Positions 4,116 through 45,065 of a stretch of 64,000 nucleotides of DNA are shown one piece after another; within the stretch, counting starts at the first letter, position 1; every line of letters begins with the position of its first letter. Origin of the DNA: Escherichia coli (lineage in GTDB: Bacteria; Pseudomonadota; Gammaproteobacteria; Enterobacterales; Enterobacteriaceae); NCBI RefSeq assembly GCF_036507355.1, contig NZ_AP027877.1; one strand, given 5' to 3'. The notes under the pieces were generated by a model. It saw nothing but the letters and a program-made list of their open reading frames with translations, ran no database searches and was not told the DNA's origin. The translations under genes and the position numbers were made by a program.

Positions 4116-4147
4116 GGCCGCCATGTGGCGGCCTGAATTATTTTTTG
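4116..4147. terminator. Hairpin plus T-tract between convergent yjiA and the antitoxin gene; possibly bidirectional
   Basis: GGCCGCCATGTGGCGGCC stem-loop followed by TTATTTTTTG. Confidence 0.5.
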
Positions 4148-4440
4148 TTCTGATCGCGCAGCATCGCTTCACGTAAAATTGCGTTCAGGCGAGTTTGATA
4201 GCCTTTACCTGGTCGCTTCAACCATTCCATCACATCAGCATCAATACGCACCGAAGCCTGAGTTTTCAATGGCCGATAAAACTTACCGCGTTCGGCGTTA
4301 GACCATTGCTCATCGCTGGAAGGTGGGATATCACTGTAATCAATATCTTCGTCGGATTTATTCGCCAGCGCCTTCAGTTCGGCCTCATGCTGCACATCGA
4401 GTGTAGAGGAGGTCCCTCGTTTATGTTTAACCATGCTCAT
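4138..4440 (-). CDS. BrnA-like antitoxin
   Basis: C-terminal ...GKGYQTRLNAILREAM resembles BrnA-family antitoxins. Start taken at the internal Met (MSMVKHK); the track ORF extends further upstream and overlaps the toxin gene. Confidence 0.55.
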   Translation of the reverse strand: MSMVKHKRGTSSTLDVQHEAELKALANKSDEDIDYSDIPPSSDEQWSNAERGKFYRPLKTQASVRIDADVMEWLKRPGKGYQTRLNAILREAMLRDQNKK

Positions 4441-4714
4441 AGCGATTCCTCTCTTTACGATCTGCTTTTCGTGCACTGATGATTCGAATAATTTCATTTC
4501 CGCTTTCGAAACGGATGGTATGCGCAACCAGAATAACCACGATGCCGTAAACCAGGCCGATTGTCTGCCAGCGATACTCACCGTTTTCTATGCGTTCTTG
4601 CTGTGACAAATGTTGTGGATCATCAAACAATAACACCGCATCTTCAAAGCGGATGCCATGTTTCACCCGATTACTTTTGGCCTTGTTTTCATCCCATTCA
4701 AACTCCATTGGCAT
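4427..4714 (-). CDS. BrnT-like toxin (DUF497)
   Basis: MEFEWDENKAKSNRVKHGIRFEDAVLLFDDP...IRIISARKA matches the BrnT pattern as I recall it. Toxin gene lies upstream of and overlaps the antitoxin gene. Confidence 0.65.
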   Translation of the reverse strand: MPMEFEWDENKAKSNRVKHGIRFEDAVLLFDDPQHLSQQERIENGEYRWQTIGLVYGIVVILVAHTIRFESGNEIIRIISARKADRKERNRYEHG

Positions 4715-4912
4715 AATTGCCATCCCTAATTGTATATACAAAAATGTATCTACAATTATTCTGCAATTATAGCGTTGATGTTGGAAATAGCATCACGTTT
4801 CGAATAATCAACCATGAAATTGACAATGAGTAAGTTGGACTTGATTCATCCAATAGAATTTCTCGCCTGACATGGCACACTAAACACCTCGCTGTCGGGT
4901 AATGACTCCAAC

Positions 4913-5415
4913 TTACTGATAGTGTTTTATGTTCAGATAATGCCCGATGGCCTTGTCATGCAGCTCCACCGATTTTGAGAACGACAGTGACTTCCGTCCC
5001 AGCCTTGCCAGATGTTGTCTCAGATTCAGATTATGTCGCTCAATGCGCTGAGTGTAACGCTTGCTGATAACGTGCAGCTTTCCCTTCAGGCGTGATTCAT
5101 ACAGCGGCCAGCCATCCGTCATCTATACTACGACCTCAAAGGCCGACAGCAGGCTCAGAAGACGCTCCAGTGTGGCCAGAGTGCGTTCACCGAAGACGTG
5201 GCCACAACCGTCCTCCGTATCCTGTCATACGCGTAAAACAGCCAGCGCTGACGTGATTTAGCACCGACGTAGCCCCAATGTTCGTCCATTTCAGCGCAGA
5301 CAATCACATCACTGCCCGGTTGTATGCGCGAGGTTACCGACTGCGGCCTGAGTTTTTTAAGTGACGTAAAACCGTGTTGAGGCCAACGCCCATAATGCGT
5401 GCACTGGCGCGACAT
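4913..5415 (-). pseudogene. insB: IS1 insB broken into two ORF fragments (4913-5122 and 5155-5415)
   Basis: Copy 2 has a continuous 167-aa InsB ORF; here the same protein is split across two frames. Confidence 0.6.
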
Positions 5416-5609
5416 CCGACGCCATTCATGGCCATATCAATGATTTTCTGGTGCGTACCGGGCTGAGAGGCGGTGTAAGTGAACTGCAGTTGCCATGTTT
5501 TACGGCAATGAGAGCAGAGATAGCGCTGATGTCCGGCAGTGCTTTTGCCGTTACGCACCACGCCTTCAGTAGCGGAGCAGGAAGGACATCTGATGGAAAT
5601 GGAAGCCAC
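5334..5609 (-). CDS. insA: IS1 InsA
   Basis: 91-aa [46 protein letters not shown]... Confidence 0.85.
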
Positions 5610-5923
5610 GCAAGCACCTTAAAATCACCATCATACACTAAATCAGTAAGTTGGCAGCATTACCAAATTTTAATTACACTTAAGGTGTATATTTTCTATG
5701 CAAGCCATCAATTAAAGAGGTGTAATGTGCTGATGACTATTTGTAATCGTTATACATTCTGACCTGGAGTCAGAAGGTATTTCTCTGTCTGTGTATTCGC
5801 AGGCAGTGTGGTTGATTACATGAAATTCAGTACATTTGTCCTTCTCGCCTGCCTTTCGTCATTACCGACGGTATTGAATTTCGTTTTCCCCATTGGGGTT
5901 CTCCGGACAAGGAGTTGTTTGTT

Positions 5924-7156
5924 ATGCCACGTTTTTTTGCCCGCCATGCCGCCACGCTGTTTTTCCCGATGGCGTTGATTTTGTATGACTTTGCTGCGTA
6001 TCTGTCGACGGACCTGATCCAGCCAGGGATCATTAATGTGGTCCGTGATTTTAATGCCGATGTCAGTCTGGCCCCGGCTGCCGTCAGTCTCTATCTCGCT
6101 GGAGGCATGGCATTGCAGTGGCTGCTGGGGCCGCTTTCCGACAGGGTTGGCCGCAGGCCGGTGCTGATTACCGGGGCGCTAATATTTACCCTTGCCTGTG
6201 CTGCGACAATGTTCACAACGTCTATGACACAGTTTCTTATCGCGCGTGCAATTCAGGGCACCAGTATCTGTTTTATTGCCACCGTTGGTTATGTCACGGT
6301 GCAGGAGGCGTTCGGACAGACAAAAGGGATCAAGTTGATGGCGATTATCACCTCCATCGTACTGATTGCGCCGATTATTGGCCCGCTTTCCGGCGCAGCT
6401 CTGATGCACTTTGTGCACTGGAAAGTCCTTTTTGCCATCATTGCGGTTATGGGTTTTATCTCATTTGTTGGCTTACTGCTGGCGATGCCAGAGACGGTGA
6501 AGCGCGGCGCGGTTCCATTTAGCGCCAAAAGCGTCTTGCGCGATTTTCGTAATGTCTTTTGCAATCGGCTGTTCCTCTTTGGCGCAGCAACCATCTCTTT
6601 AAGCTATATCCCCATGATGAGTTGGGTGGCTGTCTCGCCGGTGATCCTGATCGACGCGGGCGGCTTAACAACTTCGCAGTTCGCCTGGACACAGGTTCCG
6701 GTGTTCGGCGCGGTGATTGTCGCGAATGCCATCGTGGCGCGTTTCGTTAAAGATCCGACCGAACCGCGCTTTATCTGGCGTGCCGTACCCCTTCAACTGG
6801 TTGGCCTCGCGCTGTTGATTATCGGCAATCTGCTGTCACCGCACGTCTGGCTGTGGTCGGTGCTGGGCACCAGTCTGTATGCTTTCGGGATTGGTTTGAT
6901 TTTCCCGACCTTATTCCGCTTTACGCTGTTTTCCAATAACTTACCGAAAGGGACCGTCTCCGCATCGCTGAATATGGTGATCCTGATGGTGATGTCTGTC
7001 TCGGTCGAAATCGGCCGCTGGCTGTGGTTTAACAGCGGTCGCTTGCAGTTTCATCTGTTAGCCGTTGTGGCAGGCGTTATCGTCGTTTTCACCCTGGCCG
7101 GATTGCTTAATCGCGTGCGCCAACATCAGGCTGCCGAGCTGGCGGAGGAGCGGTGA
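5924..7156 (+). CDS. mdtM: MFS multidrug efflux transporter
   Basis: From [35 protein letters not shown] matches my memory of MdtM; hydrophobic multi-TM profile. Confidence 0.9.
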
Positions 7157-11766: not shown

Positions 11767-12945
11767 ATGCCTTCGCCCTCGCATCCCGTAGAACGCTTTT
11801 CTTTCAGCACCGCGCTTTTCGGGATGCTGGTTCTGACCTTAGGTATGGGTTTAGGCCGCTTCCTTTATACGCCTATGTTGCCCGTCATGATGGCGGAAGG
11901 ATCGTTTTCATTTAGCCAGCTCTCGTGGATTGCCAGCGGCAACTATGCGGGGTATCTGGCTGGCAGTCTGCTATTTTCGTTTGGCGCATTTCACCAGCCA
12001 TCGCGCCTGCGCCCATTTCTGTTGGCTTCTGCCCTGGCGAGCGGGTTGTTGATCCTCGCAATGGCATGGTTGCTGCCATTTATTCTGGTGTTATTGATTC
12101 GCGTCCTGGCGGGTGTCGCCAGCGCCGGTATGCTGATTTTTGGTTCGACGCTGATTATGCAGCACACGCGCCATCCTTTTGTGCTGGCAGCTTTGTTTTC
12201 TGGCGTTGGCATTGGCATCGCACTGGGCAATGAATATGTTCTGGCAGGCCTGCATTTTGACCTCTCCTCGCAAACGTTATGGCAAGGCGCCGGGGCGCTT
12301 TCTGGCATGATGCTGATTACACTTACGCTTTTAATGCCCTCGAAAAAACACGCCATCACACCAATGCCATTGGCAAAAACGGAGCAACAGATAATGAGCT
12401 GGTGGTTACTGGCTATTCTGTACGGCCTGGCGGGATTTGGTTATATCATCGTCGCGACTTACCTGCCGCTCATGGCGAAAGATGCAGGCTCACCATTGTT
12501 AACCGCCCATCTCTGGACGTTAGTCGGCTTATCAATTGTGCCTGGTTGCTTTGGCTGGCTATGGGCAGCAAAACGTTGGGAGGCTTTGCCCTGCCTGACG
12601 GCGAATTTGCTGGTGCAGGCTATCTGTGTGCTGCTTACTCTCGCCAGCGACTCGCCTCTCTTGCTTATCATCAGCAGTCTTGGTTTTGGCGGTACCTTTA
12701 TGGGCACGACATCTCTGGTGATGACTATCGCCCGCCAACTGAGCGTACCGGGAAATCTCAATCTTTTAGGCTTTGTGACGCTCATTTACGGCATTGGACA
12801 AATCCTCGGCCCGGCGCTGACCAGTATGCTCGGCAATGGAACATCGGCGCTTGCCGGCGCCACTCTCTGCGGCGCGGCGGCGTTGTTTATTGCTGCGCTT
12901 ATCAGCACAGTACAATTATTTAAGCTGCAAGTGGTCACTTCATGA
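11767..12945 (+). CDS. yjiJ: MFS-type transporter (DUF1228)
   Basis: 392-aa hydrophobic ORF in the K-12 position of yjiJ. Confidence 0.8.
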
Positions 12946-20079: not shown

Positions 20080-21540
20080 TTACAGCGCAGCCACACACTC
20101 GCGCGCACCGCGTTCGCACAGCTGCTGATATGCCGCCGTCACCGCGCCAACAAAGTCGGCATTCTGCGGCAGATCATCGGCAAAAATACCGCTCAGGCCC
20201 AGCAGCGCTTTCACGCGGTCTGCGCCCTGATACTGCGCGTTAATCTTCTGGAACTCGGCCAGCATCGGGTCGACCACGTCAATGGCATTACCCTGCTCAT
20301 CCACGCCCTGGGTGTAACGCATCCAGCCAGCCACGCCCAGCGCCAGGTGACGCCAGCTGCCGCCGTTTTGCAGGTGCAGACGCACCGGATCCAGCAGACG
20401 CTGCGGTAACTTCTGGCTGCCGTCCATCGCAATCTGCCAGGTACGGTGACGCAGAGACGGGTTGCTGAAACGCTCGATCAGCAGCGTCGCATAGGCGTTC
20501 AGGTCCGTACCTTCCGGCATCGACAGCGTTGGCGCTTGTTCCTGCATCATCAGGGCAAAGGCCGCTTTGCGATAATCCGGGTTAGTCATGGTGTCGGCAA
20601 TAGTTTCATAGCCGCCGAGGTAACCGAGGTATGCCAGGAAAGAGTGGCTGCCGTTCAGCATACGCAGCTTCATCATTTCGAACGGCACAACGTCTGCAAC
20701 GAACTGTGCGCCCACTTTATCCCAGTCCGGACGACCATTAACGAAGTTATCTTCAATCACCCACTGACGGAACGGTTCGCAGGCAATGGCGCACGGGTCA
20801 TAAACACCCAGCTGGTCAGCAATTTCCTGTAAGGTTTCTGGCGTCGCCGCCGGAACGATGCGGTCAACCATGGTGCACGGGAAGGTGACGTTCTCTTCAA
20901 TCCATGCCGCCAGCTGCGGGTCACGCGCCTGAGCCAGCCCCAGTACCGCGACCTTCGCCACATGACCGTTTTCACGCACGTTATCGCAGGACATCACCGT
21001 AAACGCTTTCAGCCCTTTTTCACGACGCAGACGCAGGGCTTCGACGATGTAACCAATCGCAGACTTCGGCGCAGTCGGGTTTTCCAGATCGTGCTTGATC
21101 AGCGGGTTATTGAGATCCAACTGACCGCTTGCCGCATCAGCGCAGTAGCCTTTTTCCGTGACCGTCAGAGAGACAATCGCCGTCTGCGGACGCGCCATCG
21201 CGTTGAGAATACCTTCGCAGCCGTCGATTTCCGGATGCAGCGCTTCTTTCATCGAACCGATAATTTTCAGTTCGGTGCTTTCCGCGCCTTTTTCCGCCAC
21301 GGTGTACAGCAGTTGCTGTTTTTTCAGGTTTTCAATCAGCACACGGTCGTTACCTGGCATCAGGTTAACTTCGCAGATACCCCAGTCGCTGTCGGTGCTT
21401 TCCAGCAGATGATGGGTATACAGCGCCTGGTGCGCGCGGTGAAACGCCCCGCAACCGAGATGCACAATGCGTGATTCCAGACGAGAATGCTCCCATGACG
21501 GGCGGGCAACCGGCAGATTGCTGTCAACAATAGTAGTCAT
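20080..21540 (-). CDS. uxuB: D-mannonate oxidoreductase
   Basis: 486-aa ORF in the uxuA-uxuB-uxuR arrangement. Confidence 0.9.
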   Translation of the reverse strand: MTTIVDSNLPVARPSWEHSRLESRIVHLGCGAFHRAHQALYTHHLLESTDSDWGICEVNLMPGNDRVLIENLKKQQLLYTVAEKGAESTELKIIGSMKEALHPEIDGCEGILNAMARPQTAIVSLTVTEKGYCADAASGQLDLNNPLIKHDLENPTAPKSAIGYIVEALRLRREKGLKAFTVMSCDNVRENGHVAKVAVLGLAQARDPQLAAWIEENVTFPCTMVDRIVPAATPETLQEIADQLGVYDPCAIACEPFRQWVIEDNFVNGRPDWDKVGAQFVADVVPFEMMKLRMLNGSHSFLAYLGYLGGYETIADTMTNPDYRKAAFALMMQEQAPTLSMPEGTDLNAYATLLIERFSNPSLRHRTWQIAMDGSQKLPQRLLDPVRLHLQNGGSWRHLALGVAGWMRYTQGVDEQGNAIDVVDPMLAEFQKINAQYQGADRVKALLGLSGIFADDLPQNADFVGAVTAAYQQLCERGARECVAAL

Positions 21541-21620
21541 CGTAAACTCCAGAATCCGTCTTCAGAGAGTGACGGCAAGGAAGAAGGAACCGGCACGGCG
21601 CGCAGCCATGCCGGTGGATA

Positions 21621-22805
21621 TTAACGGCTAAAGAAAGCGCGCTGGATCGCCAGTTCGACACCGCGAACTTCGGCCAGGCCTTTCAGACGACCAATTGCGG
21701 AGTAACCTGGGTTAGTTTTCTTCTTCAGGTCGTCCAGCATCTGATGACCGTGGTCCGGACGCATCGGGATCAGGTCTTCTTTGCCTTCCGCTTTACGACG
21801 GTGTTCCTCTTCAACAATCGCTTTCACCACTTCGTACATATCAACGTCACCGTTCAAGTGCGCCGCTTCGTGGAAGGTTTTCGGGTTATCTTCACGCATG
21901 GTGGAGCGCAGATGGGTGAAGTAAATACGCGGACCGAACTGCTTGATCATATCAACCAGATCGTTGTCAGCACGCACGCCGTAGGAACCGGTGCACATGG
22001 TGAAACCGTTCGCCATGCTGTTTACGGTATCAACCATCCACTGCATATCTTCAATGGTGGAAACAATGCGCGGCAGGCCGAGGATCGGGCGCGGCGGATC
22101 GTCCGGGTGAACAGCCATACGGACGCCAACTTCTTCGGCAACCGGAATAATCGCTTTCAGGAAGACGGCAAAGTTTTCGCGCAGTTTGGCTTTGTCGATA
22201 TCTTTATATAGCTCCAGGTGCTTACGGAACTGGTCGAGGGTGTACCCTTCTTCCGCGCCCGGAAGACCAGCAATGATGTTACGGGTCAGACGCGCTTTGT
22301 CTTCGTCGCTCATAGTGGCGAAGCGAACAGCTGCCTGAGCAATTTCTTCTTCGGTGTAATCCGCTTCCGCGCCTGGACGTTTCAGGATATGCATTTCGAA
22401 TGCAGCGAATTCGATCTGGTCAAAGCGCAGAGCTTTGGAGCCGTCTGGCAGCACGTATTCGAGGTCAGTACGGGTCCAGTCGAGCACCGGCATGAAGTTG
22501 TAGCACACGGTGCGAATGCCGCACTGCGCCAGGTTGCGCAGAGTCTGCTGATAGTTAGCGATCCACTGCTCATAGTTGCCAGTGTGGGTTTTGATATCTT
22601 CGTGAATTGGCACGCTTTCTACGACAGACCATACCAGGCCTGCGTCTTCAACGATCGCCTTGCGTTTGAGGATCTCTTCAACGGACCATACTTCGCCGTT
22701 CGGGATATGGTGCAGCGCGGTAACCACGCCAGTTGCGCCCGCCTGACGGACATCAGCTAAAGAAACCGGATCGTTTGGGCCGTACCAGCGCCAGGTCTGT
22801 TCCAT
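21621..22805 (-). CDS. uxuA: D-mannonate dehydratase
   Basis: From [28 protein letters not shown]; the track ORF carries a 12-codon extension. Confidence 0.9.
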
Positions 22806-23144
22806 GATTTTTCCTCTTTCACATAGTGGGTTCCACAGCAAAGAGACGCGGAACCCTGGAGTTGTTTAGGTATCCGGATGAACAACCAGACCGCAGCCGT
22901 GGCGTTGCATCGGATGAGATGGCGTATAAGTTCTACCTTTTGGTAATACATGTCAACCCGAATTCTAAAATTGGTTAACCACATCACAAGAATTTCACTC
23001 TCCTGGTTGTTGCTGCAAATTGCAGCAAAGGGTAATCGATGGTTATTGATCAGAGGATGTGACATTCATCGCAACAATGGTTGACCAATTTACATAACAT
23101 GTCGCCCAAAATAACAACGGTTCAACCAGGTAAGGTAAAACGTT

Positions 23145-24488
23145 ATGCATGTGCTTAACATTCTCTGGGTGGTATTCGGCATTGGTCTGATGCTGGTACT
23201 GAATTTGAAGTTCAAAATCAATTCAATGGTGGCTTTGTTGGTGGCGGCGCTGTCCGTCGGGATGCTGGCGGGCATGGATTTGATGTCGCTGCTGCACACC
23301 ATGAAAGCGGGCTTCGGCAACACGCTGGGGGAACTGGCTATCATCGTGGTGTTCGGTGCGGTCATCGGTAAATTGATGGTCGACTCCGGCGCGGCTCACC
23401 AGATAGCACATACGCTGCTGGCACGTCTCGGTCTGCGCTATGTACAGCTGTCGGTGATTATCATCGGCCTGATTTTTGGTCTGGCGATGTTCTATGAAGT
23501 GGCCTTTATCATGTTAGCGCCGCTGGTTATTGTCATTGCCGCCGAAGCTAAAATTCCGTTCCTGAAACTGGCGATCCCGGCAGTAGCAGCTGCCACTACC
23601 GCACATTCACTGTTCCCACCGCAGCCGGGTCCTGTGGCGCTGGTGAATGCTTATGGCGCAGATATGGGGATGGTTTATATCTATGGCGTACTGGTGACGA
23701 TCCCAAGTGTAATCTGCGCTGGTCTGATCCTGCCGAAGTTCCTCGGCAATCTTGAGCGCCCAACGCCATCATTCCTGAAAGCAGATCAACCGGTAGATAT
23801 GAACAATCTGCCCTCTTTCGGCGTTTCGATTCTGGTGCCGCTGATCCCGGCGATCATTATGATCTCCACCACCATCGCCAATATCTGGCTGGTAAAAGAT
23901 ACCCCTGCCTGGGAAGTGGTTAACTTTATCGGTTCCTCGCCGATTGCAATGTTTATTGCGATGGTGGTTGCATTCGTACTCTTTGGCACCGCACGTGGTC
24001 ATGACATGCAGTGGGTGATGAACGCTTTTGAAAGTGCGGTGAAAAGCATTGCAATGGTGATTCTGATCATCGGTGCGGGTGGCGTGTTGAAGCAAACTAT
24101 CATCGACACCGGCATTGGCGACACCATCGGCATGTTGATGTCCCACGGCAATATCTCGCCCTACATTATGGCATGGCTGATCACTGTGCTAATTCGTCTG
24201 GCGACGGGTCAGGGTGTCGTTTCGGCGATGACCGCCGCCGGGATTATCAGTGCTGCAATCCTTGATCCAGCAACCGGTCAGCTGGTTGGCGTGAATCCGG
24301 CGCTGCTGGTGCTGGCGACGGCTGCGGGTTCCAACACCCTCACCCACATTAATGATGCCTCATTCTGGCTGTTCAAAGGTTACTTTGACCTGTCGGTAAA
24401 AGACACGTTGAAAACCTGGGGACTGCTGGAGCTGGTCAACTCCGTGGTTGGGCTGATTATTGTGTTGATTATCAGCATGGTAGCGTAA
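23145..24488 (+). CDS. gntP: GntP-family gluconate/fructuronate transporter
   Basis: 447-aa hydrophobic ORF between uxuA and fimH, as in K-12. Confidence 0.9.
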
Positions 24489-24553
24489 AAGAACACCAGA
24501 GCCTGCCAATGGCGGGCTCTGTTCGGATTGTCGGCAAAGTGCGCTTTGTTTAT

Positions 24554-24592
24554 GCCAGATGCGACGCTGACGCGTCTTATCTGGCCTACAAA
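24554..24592. repeat. REP element
   Basis: GCCAGATGCGACGCTGACGCGTCTTATCTGGCCTAC. Confidence 0.7.
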
Positions 24593-24661
24593 GGGCTAAC
24601 GTGCAGGTTTTTAGCTTCAGGTAATATTGCGTACCTGCATTAGCAATGCCCTGTGATTTCT

Positions 24662-25564
24662 TTATTGATAAACAAAAGTCACGCCAATAATCGATTGCAC
24701 ATTCCCTGCAGTCACCTGCCCTCCGGTACGTGCGTAATTTGCCGTTAATCCCAGACTTACCGCCGAAGTTCCTACTGCTCCTAACGATACCGTGTTATTC
24801 GCTGGAATAATCGCACCGTTGCGCGTCAACTGTACGCCGACGCCCTGCGCTGGTGAAAACGACGCGGTATTGGTGAAAATCGAGTTGCCCGCATCTGCGG
24901 TTGTGCCGGAGAGGTAATACCCCAGGTTTTGGCTTTTCGCACAATAAACGGTAAGAGGAATTGGCACTGAACCAGGGTAGTCCGGCAGAGTAACGGTGAC
25001 ATCACGAGCAGAAACATCACAGCCGCCAGTGGGCACCACCACATCATTATTGGCGTAAATATTCCACACAAACTGGAAATCATCGCTGTTATAGTTGTTG
25101 GTCTGTCGCAAAATAAGCACGGCAATTAATGAGCCAGCTTTAATCGCCACCCCGCCCGCACTGCTCACAGGCGTCAAATAAAGCGCCACCGGCCACGGCT
25201 TATCCGTTCTCGAATTATAAACAACCCGCGGCGTTTCGCTGGTGGTCGGAAATGGATAGCTACTGCCACTATATTTTACGGTCCCGGAAAAATTAGATAA
25301 CACGCCGCCATAAGCCGAGCCTCGTTGCAGTGTGACATAGTCTGTAATGGTTTCCGGATAATCGTTATGGCAAAAGATTTGCGTCGAAAGATCTACGACC
25401 AGGTTTTGCCCCACATTCACGGCAGGCGCAAGGTTTACATAAACATTAGCGCTGCCACCACCAATAGGGATAGCGGTACCATTGGCGGTTTTACAGGCGA
25501 ATGACCAGGCATTTACCGACCAGCCCATCAGCAGTACAGCAAACAGGGTAATAACTCGTTTCAT
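24662..25564 (-). CDS. fimH: Type 1 fimbrial adhesin
   Basis: 300-aa ORF MKRVITLFAVLLMGWSVNAWSFACKTANGTAIPIGGGSANVYVNLAP... Confidence 0.9.
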   Translation of the reverse strand: MKRVITLFAVLLMGWSVNAWSFACKTANGTAIPIGGGSANVYVNLAPAVNVGQNLVVDLSTQIFCHNDYPETITDYVTLQRGSAYGGVLSNFSGTVKYSGSSYPFPTTSETPRVVYNSRTDKPWPVALYLTPVSSAGGVAIKAGSLIAVLILRQTNNYNSDDFQFVWNIYANNDVVVPTGGCDVSARDVTVTLPDYPGSVPIPLTVYCAKSQNLGYYLSGTTADAGNSIFTNTASFSPAQGVGVQLTRNGAIIPANNTVSLGAVGTSAVSLGLTANYARTGGQVTAGNVQSIIGVTFVYQ

Positions 25565-25583
25565 TACAATTATCTCTTCGGGT

Positions 25584-26087
25584 TCAGCTGTAGGTATAGG
25601 TGATGCTAATCACTGCCTGAATGGTTCCCTGAGTGGCTCCGCCATTTACCGTCAATGCTCTGACCTGTAACGGGAAGTGCGCTGATTGTGAGGAATCATC
25701 CACCTGAACTGTTTTGGTTGCGCCAGTATTCAATGTGTTGCCACTGTCATCCTGTAGCTCTAACTGGATGTTTTGCGCGGTCCCCTGGTTTTTATAATAT
25801 CCGGTATTGTCGGCTGCCCCGCTGAAGCTGGCAGTGACCCTCGACGTTCCCACCGGACAATTAGTCAACTCAAGCGCAACATCATGCCAGGCCGATGCCG
25901 CCCCGGCAGACATCAGACTGAAAGAATAAAGATCGCCGAGATCAACCGTGGCATTGGTGGTGGAAACTGTGCACGGTTTGGCGACGACCTTACCGTTCAC
26001 CGTGATGGTGACATCGGCTGCCTGTATCGTCGCACTTGCGAGCGCCAATATTGCCGCCAATAAATACCCACGTTTGCGCCATTTCAT
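25584..26087 (-). CDS. fimG: Type 1 fimbrial minor subunit
   Basis: Pilin-like ORF with signal peptide; start taken at MKWRKRGYLL. Confidence 0.85.
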   Translation of the reverse strand: MKWRKRGYLLAAILALASATIQAADVTITVNGKVVAKPCTVSTTNATVDLGDLYSFSLMSAGAASAWHDVALELTNCPVGTSRVTASFSGAADNTGYYKNQGTAQNIQLELQDDSGNTLNTGATKTVQVDDSSQSAHFPLQVRALTVNGGATQGTIQAVISITYTYS

Positions 26088-26099
26088 GAGCATCTCCAG

Positions 26100-26630
26100 T
26101 TACTGATATTCAAGAGTGAAGGTAGCCGTGGCATTGATATGCCCCGCAGTGACAGGCACCTGTGTCGCCATTAGCCGGGCGTAAAAATTCAACGTATTTG
26201 GTTTACCCGGCGTCAGGGTCGTCCACGAAATCGCGGACGATGGAGCATTAAGGGGTATCTGATTTTGCTGCTCATTCAGAAGCTGTATTCCCAATCCCGA
26301 AGCCGCTGACACCGTATTTTCAAGTGCAAGCAGGTTGGCATTGTGGCTATCTGCAACACCGGTAAACCCAACCTTTACGGCAGAAAGGGCGTTACCACAG
26401 GGTGACAGCAAAATACGAAATGGAACGACAGGAGTCGTTGCGCCAATGTTGTTAAATTGCTTCGCCGCGTTTTCCATCAGATCAACAGTAAAATTGGTTG
26501 ATTCAGCGGCCACACTACAGCCGTTATCTCTGACATAGCCGCGGATAGTAATCGTGCTATCCGCAGCCAAAACGCGACTTACCGCCAGCCACAAAAAAGC
26601 GCACAGAAGATAAAAAGGTTTGTTTCTCAT
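26100..26630 (-). CDS. fimF: Type 1 fimbrial minor subunit
   Basis: From [17 protein letters not shown]...; pilin-like. Confidence 0.85.
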
Positions 26631-26639
26631 CACGCCCCC

Positions 26640-29276
26640 TTAACGACATTCAGCTGATAGCTGGGTTAATAACTGCTGCTGACTCTCTGGTGGCAGTTGA
26701 TAATTGGCGATACAGTGAGCATTTTCCTCTTCTCCCCATTTCACCTGAACTTTTCCCGCTAGAGGCATTCCGCTGAGGTAAACCTGACCATTATCCGCAA
26801 CAATGCCGCTACTCTGGCTACTCTCTGATGTCACCATCGCCCCAAACGGCAGCGGCTTATTATTGTGGGTTAGCGTCATGAGCAGTTTTATCCCAACGCG
26901 CGCTTTAAACTCTGCTCGCACGATCGCCCCACGAGTGGGAACAACGTTAGCGACCGCGTTATCTAAATCGACGTTATCAGCCAGGGTATTGGTATCCAGC
27001 GCCACTCTGTTTTCCCGATATTCGGTGGCATAAGGCAGCACGGCATAACCGCGCCAGTCGGTACGCACCCCCGTCTGGTTTTCGACTTTTGCATCTTTTG
27101 CGCCAGGCGCTTTAACAAGTACCACCGTATCGTTTAACGGCTGCCCCAGCGTTACACCATTGGCATGAGCCAGTACCCCACCGCTGACTCCGTAATAGAG
27201 CTGCTTAATATCATCGCTATGGCTGTAACCGATATTGGCATTGCCGTAACCACCGCGATAATTCAGCGTGGCGTAGCCTGTACTTCCGCTATTACCATCA
27301 CCTCCCCCGGCATAGCCGGTTTGCACGCAATAGCTGAGGTTGTTGTCTTCCAGCAACGTACCGTATACACCAGCCAGATTGGTCATCCGACCGTTGAGAT
27401 CGTGTGACATGCTGTAGCTGGCACTGGCATGTCGCCACTGAGATTTACTGTCAGAACGCAGCCAGTGGCTGAAAGGAATATTGACGTTAAGCGCTAACAT
27501 CTGATCACGTCCTTTTTGCCAGGCGTTTTTCGTCAGGCTATAGCTGAGCGTCCAGTTGATATCTTCGAACGCAGTATTTAAACCAGCCTGGAATTGCTCA
27601 TCGACATTACTCGTTCCCCAATAAGTTTGATGGCTACCACTCAAATACAGTGTTGATGAGCGCCCGAGTTGCTGAGTAACGGTGAGTTGTAATTTCCCGC
27701 GTTTGTTATAAGCGAGGTTGTAATAGTCGGTGAATTTCGGCTTAACCTGAATAACTCCATCCTGTGTTTCGATGTTGTAGCCATTCATTCGACTGTATGT
27801 TGTATCAGCGAAATTAAAATATCCGCTGGTCGAATAACGGTAACCCACTAACTGAATATTCGTGCCTGACTCATTGAGCGATTTGTTATAGAGAAAACGC
27901 ACCGATTGTCCGTCATGCTGACTGTCATCGGGAAGTGTGGAATTAGCCTGAGTCATATCCACAGACAGAGCGCCCAGTGCCCCCATATTTTTCCCGATAC
28001 CAAAATTAAAAGCACGATAACGATCTGCCAGTTGCGTTCCACCATATATTGTCCAGCCAGCCGGAAGGCCGTGGAGTAATGTACTTTGGAAAAAGCGGGG
28101 TTTTTCCTGTTGCGCATTTCCACTACGGTATTCTCCTGCCATAATGGAATAACGAGTATGCCCTTCACGTTGCAAAAGCGGGACTGACGAATAGGGTACG
28201 GTAAAAATCTGCGTGCTGCCGTCAGCCTCTTTAATCGTTACCTGCAAGTCACCACTATTACCTGCGGCATAGATATCGTTGATGGTAAAAGGCCCCGGCG
28301 GCACCGTACTATTATAAATGTCATACCCATTTTGTTTAATAGTGACCTGTGCAGTACCACGAGCAATACCGTGGATCACCGGGGCAAATCCTCTTTGGCT
28401 ATCGGGTAACATATTGTCATCTGAGGCCAATTGTGCGCCGCGAAAGTTAATACCATCGAAAATATCGCCCTGAGTATAACCATCACCCAGCGTCAGCCGG
28501 GAACGTAACGGTATTATGTCTCGCTCAAGCCAGGTATTGATATGCTGCCATTTATTTTTGCTATTTGATGAACTGTCGCTACTGTTATAACTCCAGCTGG
28601 TATTGTCGCGTAAACGCCACGCACCAATATTTAACCCACTCTGTAGGTTTAAATATGCATAATGGCTGTTACCCCCAATCCGATTCTGTACACTATTTCC
28701 GCTGAAATTATAATTGAGCAATCCGGCATTAATACCGGGATCCCATAACTCAGGAGGAATATAACCACGCGCGCGATTACTCATAAATGCCTGAGGGATC
28801 GTCAGGTTGAGTCGCTGCTGACCAACATCTAAATGCGCAGTAGCGTCCTGGACCATTGTGGTTAATGGCACGCAGGCATCATCCGCCAGCAGATTCATAC
28901 CGGAGACAGAAGCCGTATTCAGCCCCATACTGGCAAGTTGCGCGCGTGTCAGGCAGGGAACAATCCCTTGTTCGCTGTCGCCCGTATTAAATGTGACATC
29001 ACGCGTTGCCATATAACCATTATTCAAATAGATATCGACGCGATACGTCCCTGGCGGTAATTCTTGCCCATTTTCAAAACGCGATAAATCGGCCACAGCC
29101 TGGGGATCATCCGCTAAAAAACGCGGGTTAAAATAGAGTTCGGCAGATGACAAAGGTGCCTGTGCGGCAAAAGCACAGGCGACAACGAGCCGGACAAAAA
29201 AACCAGCCAAACGATGCTTACGAATATGCAAGCATTGTGTGTTTCGCTGGTAAAGTCTTAAATTCAGATATGACAT
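26640..29276 (-). CDS. fimD: Fimbrial usher
   Basis: 878-aa outer-membrane usher ORF. Confidence 0.9.
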   Translation of the reverse strand: MSYLNLRLYQRNTQCLHIRKHRLAGFFVRLVVACAFAAQAPLSSAELYFNPRFLADDPQAVADLSRFENGQELPPGTYRVDIYLNNGYMATRDVTFNTGDSEQGIVPCLTRAQLASMGLNTASVSGMNLLADDACVPLTTMVQDATAHLDVGQQRLNLTIPQAFMSNRARGYIPPELWDPGINAGLLNYNFSGNSVQNRIGGNSHYAYLNLQSGLNIGAWRLRDNTSWSYNSSDSSSNSKNKWQHINTWLERDIIPLRSRLTLGDGYTQGDIFDGINFRGAQLASDDNMLPDSQRGFAPVIHGIARGTAQVTIKQNGYDIYNSTVPPGPFTINDIYAAGNSGDLQVTIKEADGSTQIFTVPYSSVPLLQREGHTRYSIMAGEYRSGNAQQEKPRFFQSTLLHGLPAGWTIYGGTQLADRYRAFNFGIGKNMGALGALSVDMTQANSTLPDDSQHDGQSVRFLYNKSLNESGTNIQLVGYRYSTSGYFNFADTTYSRMNGYNIETQDGVIQVKPKFTDYYNLAYNKRGKLQLTVTQQLGRSSTLYLSGSHQTYWGTSNVDEQFQAGLNTAFEDINWTLSYSLTKNAWQKGRDQMLALNVNIPFSHWLRSDSKSQWRHASASYSMSHDLNGRMTNLAGVYGTLLEDNNLSYCVQTGYAGGGDGNSGSTGYATLNYRGGYGNANIGYSHSDDIKQLYYGVSGGVLAHANGVTLGQPLNDTVVLVKAPGAKDAKVENQTGVRTDWRGYAVLPYATEYRENRVALDTNTLADNVDLDNAVANVVPTRGAIVRAEFKARVGIKLLMTLTHNNKPLPFGAMVTSESSQSSGIVADNGQVYLSGMPLAGKVQVKWGEEENAHCIANYQLPPESQQQLLTQLSAECR

Positions 29277-29342
29277 TATTCCTCCGGTTTAAAATCACCC
29301 GGCAGTCAATTCTTTTTATTCAGGCGAAAAATTCCCCCTGCG

Positions 29343-30068
29343 TTATTCCATTACGCCCGTCATTTTTGGGGTAAGTGCACCATAATCATTTATTGTTCGG
29401 TAAGTAATATTGCTTCCTGCATCAGAAGGCAATTTAACCGTGCTTTCGCCCATTGGAGGCACCAAGGCATTTTCAAGAACCCGTGCTCCGGCATTCAACT
29501 CTGTTACCGTCAGGTAATAGGGTGTCGGGTTAATCAGCGTCAGAGAATTCGCGCTACGACGAAATCTTAATTTTTCTGCGGCCTGATCGGGTGGCAACGC
29601 TAATTTAGCCGGACGATAGTACAGTTTAATGCGGCTGATAATTGCGAGCTGTAGCGTATTCTCAGTCAATTTTGATTTATCCATTGACGGAATCGCTTTA
29701 ACGTTCATCCAGAATAAACTTTCCCGGTCCTGTGGCAAGTGGTTATTTGTTGCATCAAGAATACGTAAGGTATTCTCTTTTTTTCCCTTCATCGCAAACA
29801 GAGGAGGCGTCACGATAAAACGACCATCCTTTACACCATCGGCATTTTCCACCCATGATTGAATTAAATAGGTACTATTTTCATCATTATTTGTCACGGC
29901 AAGTTGCACTTGTTTTTGCCCTGCCGGATAAATTACGCGAGTCGCACCTAAGGCCACTCCCGCTTCAGCGCGTCCGGCAACCATCATTGCCATGAACATC
30001 AGGATACCTGCCAGCAAGCAGAATGTTATTTCCTGCGATTTCCTTACATTGACGTTTTTATTACTCAC
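29343..30068 (-). CDS. fimC: Fimbrial periplasmic chaperone
   Basis: 241-aa PapD-like chaperone ORF. Confidence 0.9.
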   Translation of the reverse strand: MSNKNVNVRKSQEITFCLLAGILMFMAMMVAGRAEAGVALGATRVIYPAGQKQVQLAVTNNDENSTYLIQSWVENADGVKDGRFIVTPPLFAMKGKKENTLRILDATNNHLPQDRESLFWMNVKAIPSMDKSKLTENTLQLAIISRIKLYYRPAKLALPPDQAAEKLRFRRSANSLTLINPTPYYLTVTELNAGARVLENALVPPMGESTVKLPSDAGSNITYRTINDYGALTPKMTGVME

Positions 30069-30104
30069 TGTCCTGTTCCTGTTATCACATTATCTGCTGA
30101 ACAA

Positions 30105-30644
30105 TTACTGATAGGTTAAAGAGAACCAGGCCTGGGCATTGGCGATGCCGCCAGTAACCCGATGCCCGGTAGCACGATATTTGGCGATGAAATGTAGCGA
30201 AGTAGAGCCTGAGTAAAGCCGTTTCCAGTTTGCTGGAGGACGATTAATCGGTACGAGGTTTCCTTCATCATCAAACAACGCTACGCCAATATTGGTGGCT
30301 ATCCCTGGCCCCTCTCCCACGGAAAGCACATCCGGATTTTTACCATCCGCGACACCGTGAAACGCCACACCTACACGTTCGCTCACCACCGTGCTACATT
30401 CCCGTAAATGAATAACAAAAGGCACCGGTGCGCTATCTTCCCCTACCGCATGAAACCGGTTACTGCTGATTTGCCCCATATTGACCGTCATTTGTTTATC
30501 ACCGGCTTCAATCCGGCAAGTTTCCGCAATAATGACGCCCTGAAATTGCATATTTCCGCCGGGCAACGTGGTATTCCATTTATTTCCGGCCAGAGCAAAC
30601 ATTGGCAGCAACGACGCTAATAGAAATAATCTCTTCCTTTTCAT
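30105..30644 (-). CDS. fimI: Fimbrin-like protein
   Basis: Start taken at [16 protein letters not shown]; the track extension overlaps fimA. Confidence 0.8.
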
Positions 30645-30708
30645 CGTTATTTTTATCGCACAAGGGTGGGCATCCCTGCCCGTAATAACGTCCCTGAACC
30701 TGGGTAGG

Positions 30709-31263
30709 TTATTGATACTGAACCTTGAAGGTCGCATCCGCATTAGCTGCGCCAGGGGTTGCGACACCGGTTGCATAATAACGCGCCTGGAACGGAATGG
30801 TGTTAGTACCGTTATTCAGGGTTGTTTGCTCACTGAATGTCGCACCATCCAGCGTCAGCGCAGCACCCGTTCTGTCCAGGATCTGCACACCAACGTTTGT
30901 TGCACTACCTGCAGCAGAACTCTGCAGAGCCAGTACTTTAGGATGAGCACTGTCAATCGCAGTCCCCAAGAAGGCAACAGCGGCTTTTGTGGCAACACTG
31001 GTATCGCAATCATTCAGCTGAATGTTAAAACCGACAGCAGAGCTGGTTGCTCCAGTCTGCTTCAGACTAGCGGTACGAACCTGGCCCAACTGAACGGTTT
31101 CATCAACAGAGCCTGCATCAACTGCGCAAGCGGCGTTAACAACTTCCCCTTTAAAGTGAACGGTCCCACCATTTACCGTCGTGGGTGTAGTTTCAGCCAG
31201 AGCCGCTGTAGAACTCAGGGACAGAGCCGACAGAACAACAATTGCCAGAGTTTTAATTTTCAT
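30709..31263 (-). CDS. fimA: Type 1 fimbrial major subunit
   Basis: [23 protein letters not shown]...ATFKVQYQ. Confidence 0.9.
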
Positions 31264-31382
31264 ACTGCTTTCCTTTCAAAAAACTATTTCTAAATCGACA
31301 TGGGCAGTCGTTCCGTACACTTTGTTTTGTCAACGAGTTTGACTGCCAACACTGCACAGTTTCCCCCCAAAAGATGAAACAT

Positions 31383-31696
31383 TTGGGGCCATTTTGACTC
31401 ATAGAGGAAAGCATCGCGCACAAACTTTTTCAGTTTATTTGTTGGCTTGATATTCTATTGTTATCTTTATTTATAGATTTTTATATTGCATGAGGTGGTT
31501 TTTGGAGAGAAGAATGAGGAAGTTGCTTCGAGACACAGAAACGTTAGCTTTACATTTAGCGGAGGTGATGTGAAATTAATTTACAAGAGAAATGATTTAC
31601 ATATCAAACAGTTAGATGCTTTTTGTCGTTTTATAATATTTTTATGCTTGAGAAAAAATACGTAACTTATTTATGATATGGACAGTTTTGGCCCCA
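31383..31696. promoter_or_regulatory. fimS: fimS invertible promoter element, 314 bp, bounded by 9-bp inverted repeats TTGGGGCCA / TGGCCCCAA
   Basis: Inverted repeats read at 31383-31391 and 31688-31696; sits between fimE and fimA; contains a TTGAGA-N18-TATGAT promoter-like element on the + strand (31648-31677). Confidence 0.8.
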
Positions 31697-31744
31697 ATTG
31701 TCTTGTATTTATTTGTTTTTTACCTTTACTATCAATAAGTTAAA

Positions 31745-32341
31745 TTAAACCTCTTCTCTTTTTAATTTTTCGTTTATGAGATTATTTCTTTCCCATAATC
31801 CGGCAAAACGAGCAGCATTACTGGTGGTATAACGCACAGTATGGCGAATATTTCGATGCCCGAGATAATCCTGAATTAAACGGGTATCTGCACCACGCTC
31901 CGCCAGTTCATAACCGCAAGCATGCCTTAACATATGAGGATGAGTCTGCGTTACGGTTCCAGCTTCAATACCGGCATCACGAATAATGCGATAGGCCTGC
32001 TGGCGAGAAAGCCGACTCCCGCGGCGAGAAATAAATATGGCGTCGGTCCGGTCAGCGCCTTTCCAGTTAGCACGTTCCAGGGTCCAGCGTTCCACAGCTT
32101 CACGCTCATCAAAACGTAACGGGTGAACGGTAGAAAATCCGTTCTTCAGTCGGCGAATATTTATTCGACCTTCATTAAGGTCAAGATCCTGATAATGCAG
32201 ATCAAGCAGTTCACTAATACGCATCCCATGCCGATATGCCAACAGAATAAGACAATAATCTCTGGCTCCCGTTGCCCCGTAACAAACCGCCTGCATCATG
32301 GCCTGAACTTCTTTACCGGTAAGATAACGACGTTTACTCAC
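31745..32341 (-). CDS. fimE: Fim-switch tyrosine recombinase (ON-to-OFF)
   Basis: 198-aa ORF with a ...HMLRHACGYELAERG...LGHRNIRHTVRYT tyrosine-recombinase C-terminus. Confidence 0.9.
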   Translation of the reverse strand: MSKRRYLTGKEVQAMMQAVCYGATGARDYCLILLAYRHGMRISELLDLHYQDLDLNEGRINIRRLKNGFSTVHPLRFDEREAVERWTLERANWKGADRTDAIFISRRGSRLSRQQAYRIIRDAGIEAGTVTQTHPHMLRHACGYELAERGADTRLIQDYLGHRNIRHTVRYTTSNAARFAGLWERNNLINEKLKREEV

Positions 32342-44200: not shown

Positions 44201-44298
44201 GTTCACAGATAAAACACTCTCCAGGAAACCCGGGGCGGTTCACTTAGCCGCGTGTCCATTATTGCTGGATAAGATCATAACGAGGTAATGACTCCAAC

Positions 44299-44802
44299 TT
44301 ATTGATAGTGTTTTATGTTCAGATAATGCCCGATGACTTTGTCATGCAGCTCCACCGATTTTGAGAACGACAGCGACTTCCGTCCCAGCCGTGCCAGGTG
44401 CTGCCTCAGATTCAGGTTATGCCGCTCAATTCGCTGCGTATATCGCTTGCTGATTACGTGCAGCTTTCCCTTCAGGCGGGATTCATACAGCGGCCAGCCA
44501 TCCGTCATCCATATCACCACGTCAAAGGGTGACAGCAGGCTCATAAGACGCCCCAGCGTCGCCATCGTGCGTTCACCGAATACGTGCGCAACAACCGTCT
44601 TCCGGAGCCTGTCATACGCGTAAAACAGCCAGCGCTGGCGCGATTTAGCCCCGACATAGCCCCACTGTTCGTCCATTTCCGCGCAGACGATGACGTCACT
44701 GCCCGGCTGTATGCGCGAGGTTACCGACTGCGGCCTGAGTTTTTTAAGTGACGTAAAATCGTGTTGAGGCCAACGCCCATAATGCGGGCTGTTGCCCGGC
44801 AT
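44299..44802 (-). CDS. insB: IS1 InsB (transposase frame)
   Basis: 167-aa ORF ...[42 protein letters not shown]... Confidence 0.85.
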
Positions 44803-44996
44803 CCAACGCCATTCATGGCCATATCAATGATTTTCTGGTGCGTACCGGGTTGAGAAGCGGTGTAAGTGAACTGCAGTTGCCATGTTTTACGACAGTGAGA
44901 GCAGAGATAGCGCTGATGTCCGGCGGTGCTTTTGCCGTTACGCACCACCCCGTCAGTAGCTGAACAGGAGGGACAGCTGATAGAAACAGAAGCCAC
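44721..44996 (-). CDS. insA: IS1 InsA
   Basis: 91-aa [46 protein letters not shown]... Confidence 0.9.
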
Positions 44997-45065
44997 TGGA
45001 GCACCTCAAAAACACCATCATACACTAAATCAGTAAGTTGGCAGCATCACCGGCCTCGCATTTAA

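Follow-up and report, generated by a model that had tools for sequence, protein, structure and literature searches.

The window analysed here is a stretch of 64,000 nucleotides of Escherichia coli DNA (contig NZ_AP027877.1) that carries two copies of IS1. Copy 1 lies between the brnA-brnT toxin-antitoxin pair on its left (4138-4741, minus strand; recognised by Pfam BrnT_toxin and BrnA_antitoxin matches and by RefSeq annotation in relatives) and mdtM, its conserved right neighbour (5924-7156, plus strand; an open reading frame annotated by RefSeq in related genomes). Mapping of both terminal repeats places the element at 4898-5664 on the minus strand with a length of 767 bp, and shows the coordinates given in an earlier note on this DNA to be exact to the base. 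The right-end terminal inverted repeat, IRR (4898-4920, plus strand), is an exact GGTAATGACTCCAACTTACTGAT and adjoins the brnT-side flank; the left-end repeat, IRL (5642-5664, minus strand), is an exact GGTAATGCTGCCAACTTACTGAT and adjoins the mdtM-side flank. Shuffled sequence yielded no terminal-repeat matches, and both the length and the paired repeats are those of the IS1 family (~768 bp with terminal inverted repeats of ~23 bp).

The element reads insA then insB on the minus strand. The insA gene is intact (5334-5609, minus strand, 91 aa) and its product has both the zinc-ribbon and the helix-turn-helix domains (Zn_ribbon_InsA, E 6e-20; HTH_Tnp_IS1, E 5e-30; PF03811 and PF12759, far above cut-offs). 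The A6C programmed -1 frameshift motif, AAAAAAC (5352-5358, minus strand), is likewise intact on reading of the sequence, and is identical in the alignment with copy 2. The insB gene is split into two fragments in different frames, as the earlier note had described by comparison with copy 2, and its DDE_Tnp_IS1 domain (PF03400) is found in two pieces. The N-terminal fragment (5155-5415, minus strand) covers domain positions 1-37 and ends at a stop at 5155-5157; the C-terminal fragment, of 69 aa and in the original insB frame (4913-5122, minus strand), covers positions 63-131 (E 7e-36). The N-terminal fragment loses the frame at a 1-bp deletion, which falls between 5200 and 5201 when the element is aligned with four copies of 768 bp (copy 2, the IS1F of K-12 and copies from the same locus in other genomes).

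A second insB lesion, absent from the earlier note, is an amber codon at 5123-5125 (minus strand), where TGG has become TAG in the insB frame and the translation of copy 2 has W. K-12 IS1F (L005) and the same-locus 768-bp copies (L003 and L004) have this amber codon too, so its origin is not limited to the window lineage; to judge from the copies compared, only the 1-bp deletion is confined to the window-type branch. RefSeq labels K-12 IS1F and the same-locus 768-bp copies 'internal stop', and gives the same copy as in the window, where it occurs in strain 720632, the label 'IS1 family transposase, frameshifted; internal stop'. The uninterrupted InsAB' frame that characterises an autonomous IS1 is thus broken by both the 1-bp deletion and the amber codon. 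Copy 1 cannot move unaided, yet it is still movable in trans, with insA and both ends intact. For annotation purposes, insB is a doubly damaged pseudogene, and the element is a non-autonomous insertion sequence to be labelled IS1F-type.

Assignment to the IS1F subtype follows from comparison with the IS1F of K-12, located between yjhU and fecI: the two are 98.8% identical over 767 bp, their terminal repeats are identical (GGTAATG... at both ends), and they share the insB amber codon. Identity of copy 1 to copy 2 (44284-45051), an intact IS1A-type element, is ~90%. Like copy 1, K-12 IS1F is without a target duplication (flanks ATAAACATGGTC and GAAATCCCCATC; L005 1501-2268). Copy 1 differs from it in occupying another chromosomal site, in its length (767 rather than 768 bp) and the extra 1-bp deletion that frameshifts insB, and at eight further positions. 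Between the window copy and the window-type copy of strain 720632 there is one further substitution, at 4950. K-12 IS1F is reported to be immobile alone and readily mobilised by InsAB' in trans (2025 study, PMC12903888).

The sequences bordering copy 1 on its two sides are unrelated. The left breakpoint flank, TCGCTGTCG (4889-4897, plus strand), lies just upstream of an mrr-like endonuclease gene in the intact comparator L001 (see below), and the right breakpoint flank, AAATTTTAA (5665-5673, plus strand), lies 259 bp upstream of the mdtM ATG. These match at 0 of 9 positions, comparison of all lengths between 7 and 14 bp gave no direct duplication, and the 25 bp to the left of the element and the 25 bp to its right have no k-mer of at least 6 bp in common, which excludes a duplication shifted by a few bases. 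The footprint of a simple IS1 insertion, a direct duplication of 9 bp (8-10 bp), is thus missing. That the 9-bp flanks differ and that a target-site duplication is lacking had been reported in the earlier note, with the caveat that a duplication might be offset by a base or two; exact end mapping brought up no 8-9-bp direct repeat, and the caveat can be dropped. The same end mapping does recover duplications in two positive controls: in strain Ec-91, an unrelated IS1 within brnT has a clean 9-bp duplication with CCCATTCAA on both sides, and a duplicated copy in strain 720632 has a 9-bp inverted duplication, GTGGATTGC.

Strain 10035210-2 (L001) is the intact-locus comparator; it shares the yjiA-brnA-brnT neighbours of the window and has no IS at the site. 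Its gene order is brnT, the mrr-like restriction endonuclease gene, hsdM, hsdS, hsdR, symE, yjiS, yjiR, rpnD and mdtM. The left flank of copy 1 aligns to L001 position 20760 and the right flank aligns from 32031, such that the IS replaces 20761-32030, a segment of 11,270 bp, with base-exact boundaries; the annotated start of the mrr-like gene is 14 bp past the left breakpoint. The right flank runs on uninterrupted in both L001 and K-12 W3110, and W3110 extends it leftwards into rpnD-side DNA that is missing from the window. A single IS without any duplication therefore stands precisely where DNA that is continuous in other strains is interrupted, which is the arrangement expected of an adjacent deletion. 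We consider it very likely that copy 1 marks an IS1-associated deletion of the restriction region; the connection proposed in the earlier note between IS1 and the loss of the restriction locus is borne out by alignment to the intact locus, in which the flanks are 11,270 bp apart and the IS takes the place of precisely the mrr-like/hsdMSR interval. The intact comparators are only ~97.4% identical to the window over the proximal 760 bp of the left flank and 97.9-98.8% identical over longer stretches, so the true ancestor is unsampled and neither the gene content nor the exact size of the deletion is fixed by L001.

In the immigration control region, framework genes (yjiA...yjiPRS) bound a variable block of restriction genes (PMC4498929). 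The locus described here resembles the cassette variation of that region in that the same framework genes flank a variable restriction block, and departs from a cassette swap in that the window haplotype is without the whole variable block and also without the framework genes yjiS, yjiR and rpnD (yjiP). The deletion explains the absence of mrr and hsd genes from their usual place in the window strain and in 448 other complete genomes with both junctions. The brnA-brnT pair itself, which separates yjiA from the restriction region, occurs in 2112 of the 5426 complete genomes; it was not seen beside yjiA in the K-12-like region of strain 14EC001, where mrr follows yjiA.

All genome searches covered 5426 complete E. 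coli genomes, with IS1-rich records undercounted, and the yjiA-brnAT-IS1 arrangement is present in ~1100 of them. The left junction occurs in 1111 of the 5426 and the window-type right junction in 449; a further class of ~650 genomes has the identical left junction and a 768-bp IS1F with another right junction, which we refer to as yghX-type. One junction is therefore constant (1111 genomes) and the other variable (449 and ~650), a pattern that adjacent deletion predicts. The right flank of the yghX-type is a 273-bp extra copy of the yghX 3' end and the start of yghW (L003 3769-4041; also in L004, L006 and L007); a CATGCCG microhomology joins it in frame to mdtM at about codon 10. The native yghX-yghW locus is intact in the one yghX-type genome examined for it (CFSAN061772, L010). 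As side observations, the fusion gives mdtM a foreign upstream region and N-terminus, and native yghX has an IS1-end-like sequence, TAATGATTCCA, 9 bp from the junction.

Window-type and yghX-type genomes differ by 0.8-0.9% within the IS, by 0.9-1.2% in the left 4.9 kb and by 2-3.3% on the right, and the proximal 760 bp of the left flank are 100% identical between them. Given this divergence between the two classes, the insertion appears to be old and to predate their split. Left flanks at least 99% identical to that of the window are found in 1091 records, to be set against the 1111 left junctions, and every such flank appears to belong to an IS-bearing genome. The deletion is not specific to the window strain; it belongs to an old haplotype shared by hundreds of genomes. 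An element of this age could have accumulated several substitutions, and it might be supposed that copy 1 entered by simple insertion, that mutation has since erased its 9-bp duplication, and that the loss of the restriction genes had a separate cause. We give this almost no credence, as the flanks match at none of nine positions and are separated by the full 11,270 bp in L001, the right flank in K-12 W3110 continues into rpnD-side DNA that the window does not have, and nine substitutions within 9 bp are not credible beside a left flank whose proximal 760 bp are invariant between haplotypes.

IS-mediated adjacent deletion has long been described for IS1, and we think it rather more probable than otherwise that copy 1 is the product of such a deletion, made by intramolecular replicative transposition. 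An IS1F copy would first have inserted between brnT and the restriction genes, and its IRL end would then have attacked a site 259 bp upstream of mdtM on the same chromosome. The intervening DNA (~11 kb in the comparator) would have gone, and with it one of the two 9-bp repeats made by the original insertion, leaving the surviving IS between unrelated flanks. Other IS1 copies may have provided transposase in trans, or the insB stop may postdate the event; the 1-bp deletion in insB would have come later, within the window-type branch. A constant left junction with two right partners points to the brnT side as the site of the original insertion and to the IRL end as the one that moved later; this reasoning fails if yghX-type genomes derive from window-type ones.

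Missing duplications have been attributed to adjacent deletion or to inter-IS recombination (PMC11708052), and adjacent deletion has been seen for IS150 in the long-term evolution experiment. The lack of a duplication together with non-contiguous flanks is thus the footprint of either adjacent deletion or recombination between two copies (PMC11708052), and the earlier note's pairing of these two mechanisms is supported by that footprint. Copy 1 is like known adjacent deletions in having a single IS at the joint, no duplication and an exact replacement of contiguous DNA, and unlike them in that its precursor is unobserved here and the element is unable to supply its own transposase. The latter point weighs against adjacent deletion, since an amber-bearing IS1F needs transposase in trans and such supply is inefficient for IS1 (PMC12903888).

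In the alternative, two IS1F copies in the same orientation, both simple insertions with duplications of their own, would have flanked the region, and homologous recombination between them would have deleted the interval and left one hybrid copy that took one flank from either parent. Its end product would be identical, with unrelated flanks and an exact replacement, it is a documented cause of missing duplications (PMC11708052), and IS1 has entered this neighbourhood repeatedly, as in strains Ec-91, AH21 and 14EC001. We regard it as a possible but distinctly less probable origin. It requires two independent insertions by an element that is immobile on its own, it does not by itself explain the second right junction in ~650 genomes, and among the matches listed from the 5426 genomes there is no IS1F at either site beside an intact locus.

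The search for a precursor of the adjacent deletion covered three predicted junctions, those of an IS1F flanked by its target duplication at the left breakpoint, at the right breakpoint or within yghX, with 45 nt of IS1 in each. With IS1-rich genomes undercounted, no IS1F with a 9-bp duplication at a breakpoint beside an intact locus, and no pair of directly oriented copies around the region, was present among the matches listed from the 5426 complete genomes. A longer composite query did not discriminate, since complete, ordinary IS1 copies reached the score expected of a true junction. Strain Ec-91 was the best match of both composite searches and was rejected as a precursor, its IS1 being an unrelated, intact copy in the 5' end of brnT with a duplication of its own. 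In strain STK78-E the geometry of the matches places an IS1 near yghX, roughly 900 bp from the yghX-type junction. As no simple-insertion precursor was found, adjacent deletion and two-copy recombination are not separable from each other, and we infer the two-step history rather than observe it. A recombination between copies 1 and 2 of the window was considered and rejected: they are ~10% diverged and lie in direct orientation 39 kb apart, and their four 9-bp flanks show no mutual match, either directly or as reverse complements.

Strain 720632 shows a related rearrangement. It has the same 767-bp copy, with both lesions, twice (L009 4760-5526 and 11797-12563), in inverted orientation around an inverted mdtM-to-yjiJ' segment, and at the new junctions the 9-bp target GTGGATTGC (window 11925-11933) is present as an inverted duplication. 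An inversion with a duplicated IS and an inverted repeat of the target is the textbook outcome of intramolecular replicative transposition. The duplication in strain 720632 shows that the ends of the element work and that it is mobilised in trans. If the same reaction ended in a deletion, it would give exactly the structure seen in the window, and the 720632 inversion is the strongest mechanistic support for adjacent deletion. It also bears on a one-step origin, in which IS1F was captured into a double-strand break during the deletion, with no staggered cut and hence no duplication made. Such capture has been proposed for duplication-less IS5 and IS481 events (PMC11708052) and would not require normal transposition by a defective element. 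It seems unlikely to us here, because neither IS end has lost a single base, which is what processing by transposase should leave, because the same element made a canonical 9-bp duplication in strain 720632, and because the process has not been demonstrated for IS1.

Duplication-less IS1 copies recur at different deletions in this restriction region. In AH21, an IS1A lies at an hsdM/IS1A/'rpnD deletion (L011 3277-4044), and in 14EC001 another lies at an hsdR'/IS1A/'rpnD deletion in a K-12-like region (L012 3277-4044); both are without a duplication. These two were considered as nested deletions from the same left junction as that of copy 1 and rejected as such, as they are independent IS1A events in which both junctions differ.

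Copy 1 is a natural example of an IS1 that is unable to make its own transposase and has still been moved by others. It is otherwise ordinary, a known IS subtype with a known mechanism, and nothing about it departs from established IS1 biology. The RefSeq annotation of the genomes examined already shows an IS1 pseudogene for this haplotype, and its significance beyond bookkeeping is little; literature searches found no paper describing this particular haplotype or scar. A more far-reaching reading, which we put forward only as a doubtful speculation, is that the scar is a long-lived, trans-mobilisable IS1F whose IRL has repeatedly remodelled the DNA upstream of mdtM, and that the type I restriction loss was selected. 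If this were true, the remodelling events would be the window-type deletion, the capture of yghX-yghW (with a new promoter and N-terminus for mdtM) and the 720632 inversion, and the loss of type I restriction in ~20% of complete E. coli genomes would have been selected, for example by easing the uptake of foreign plasmids.

Two minor observations concern other parts of the window. The left-flank 9-mer CCTCGCTGT (4887-4895) matches a 9-mer in mdtM, CCACGCTGT (5952-5960), at 8 of 9 positions, and the latter sits just beyond the point at which yghW is fused to mdtM in yghX-type genomes; the likeness was spotted by eye post hoc and is probably due to chance. Copy 2 (768 bp), in which insA and insB are intact and which has the same orientation as copy 1, is also without a target duplication (flanks TCATAACGA and GGCCTCGCA). 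Its two junctions occur together in none of the 5426 complete genomes, and the copy seems to mark a recent IS1-linked rearrangement specific to this strain, beside a recombinase-like open reading frame.
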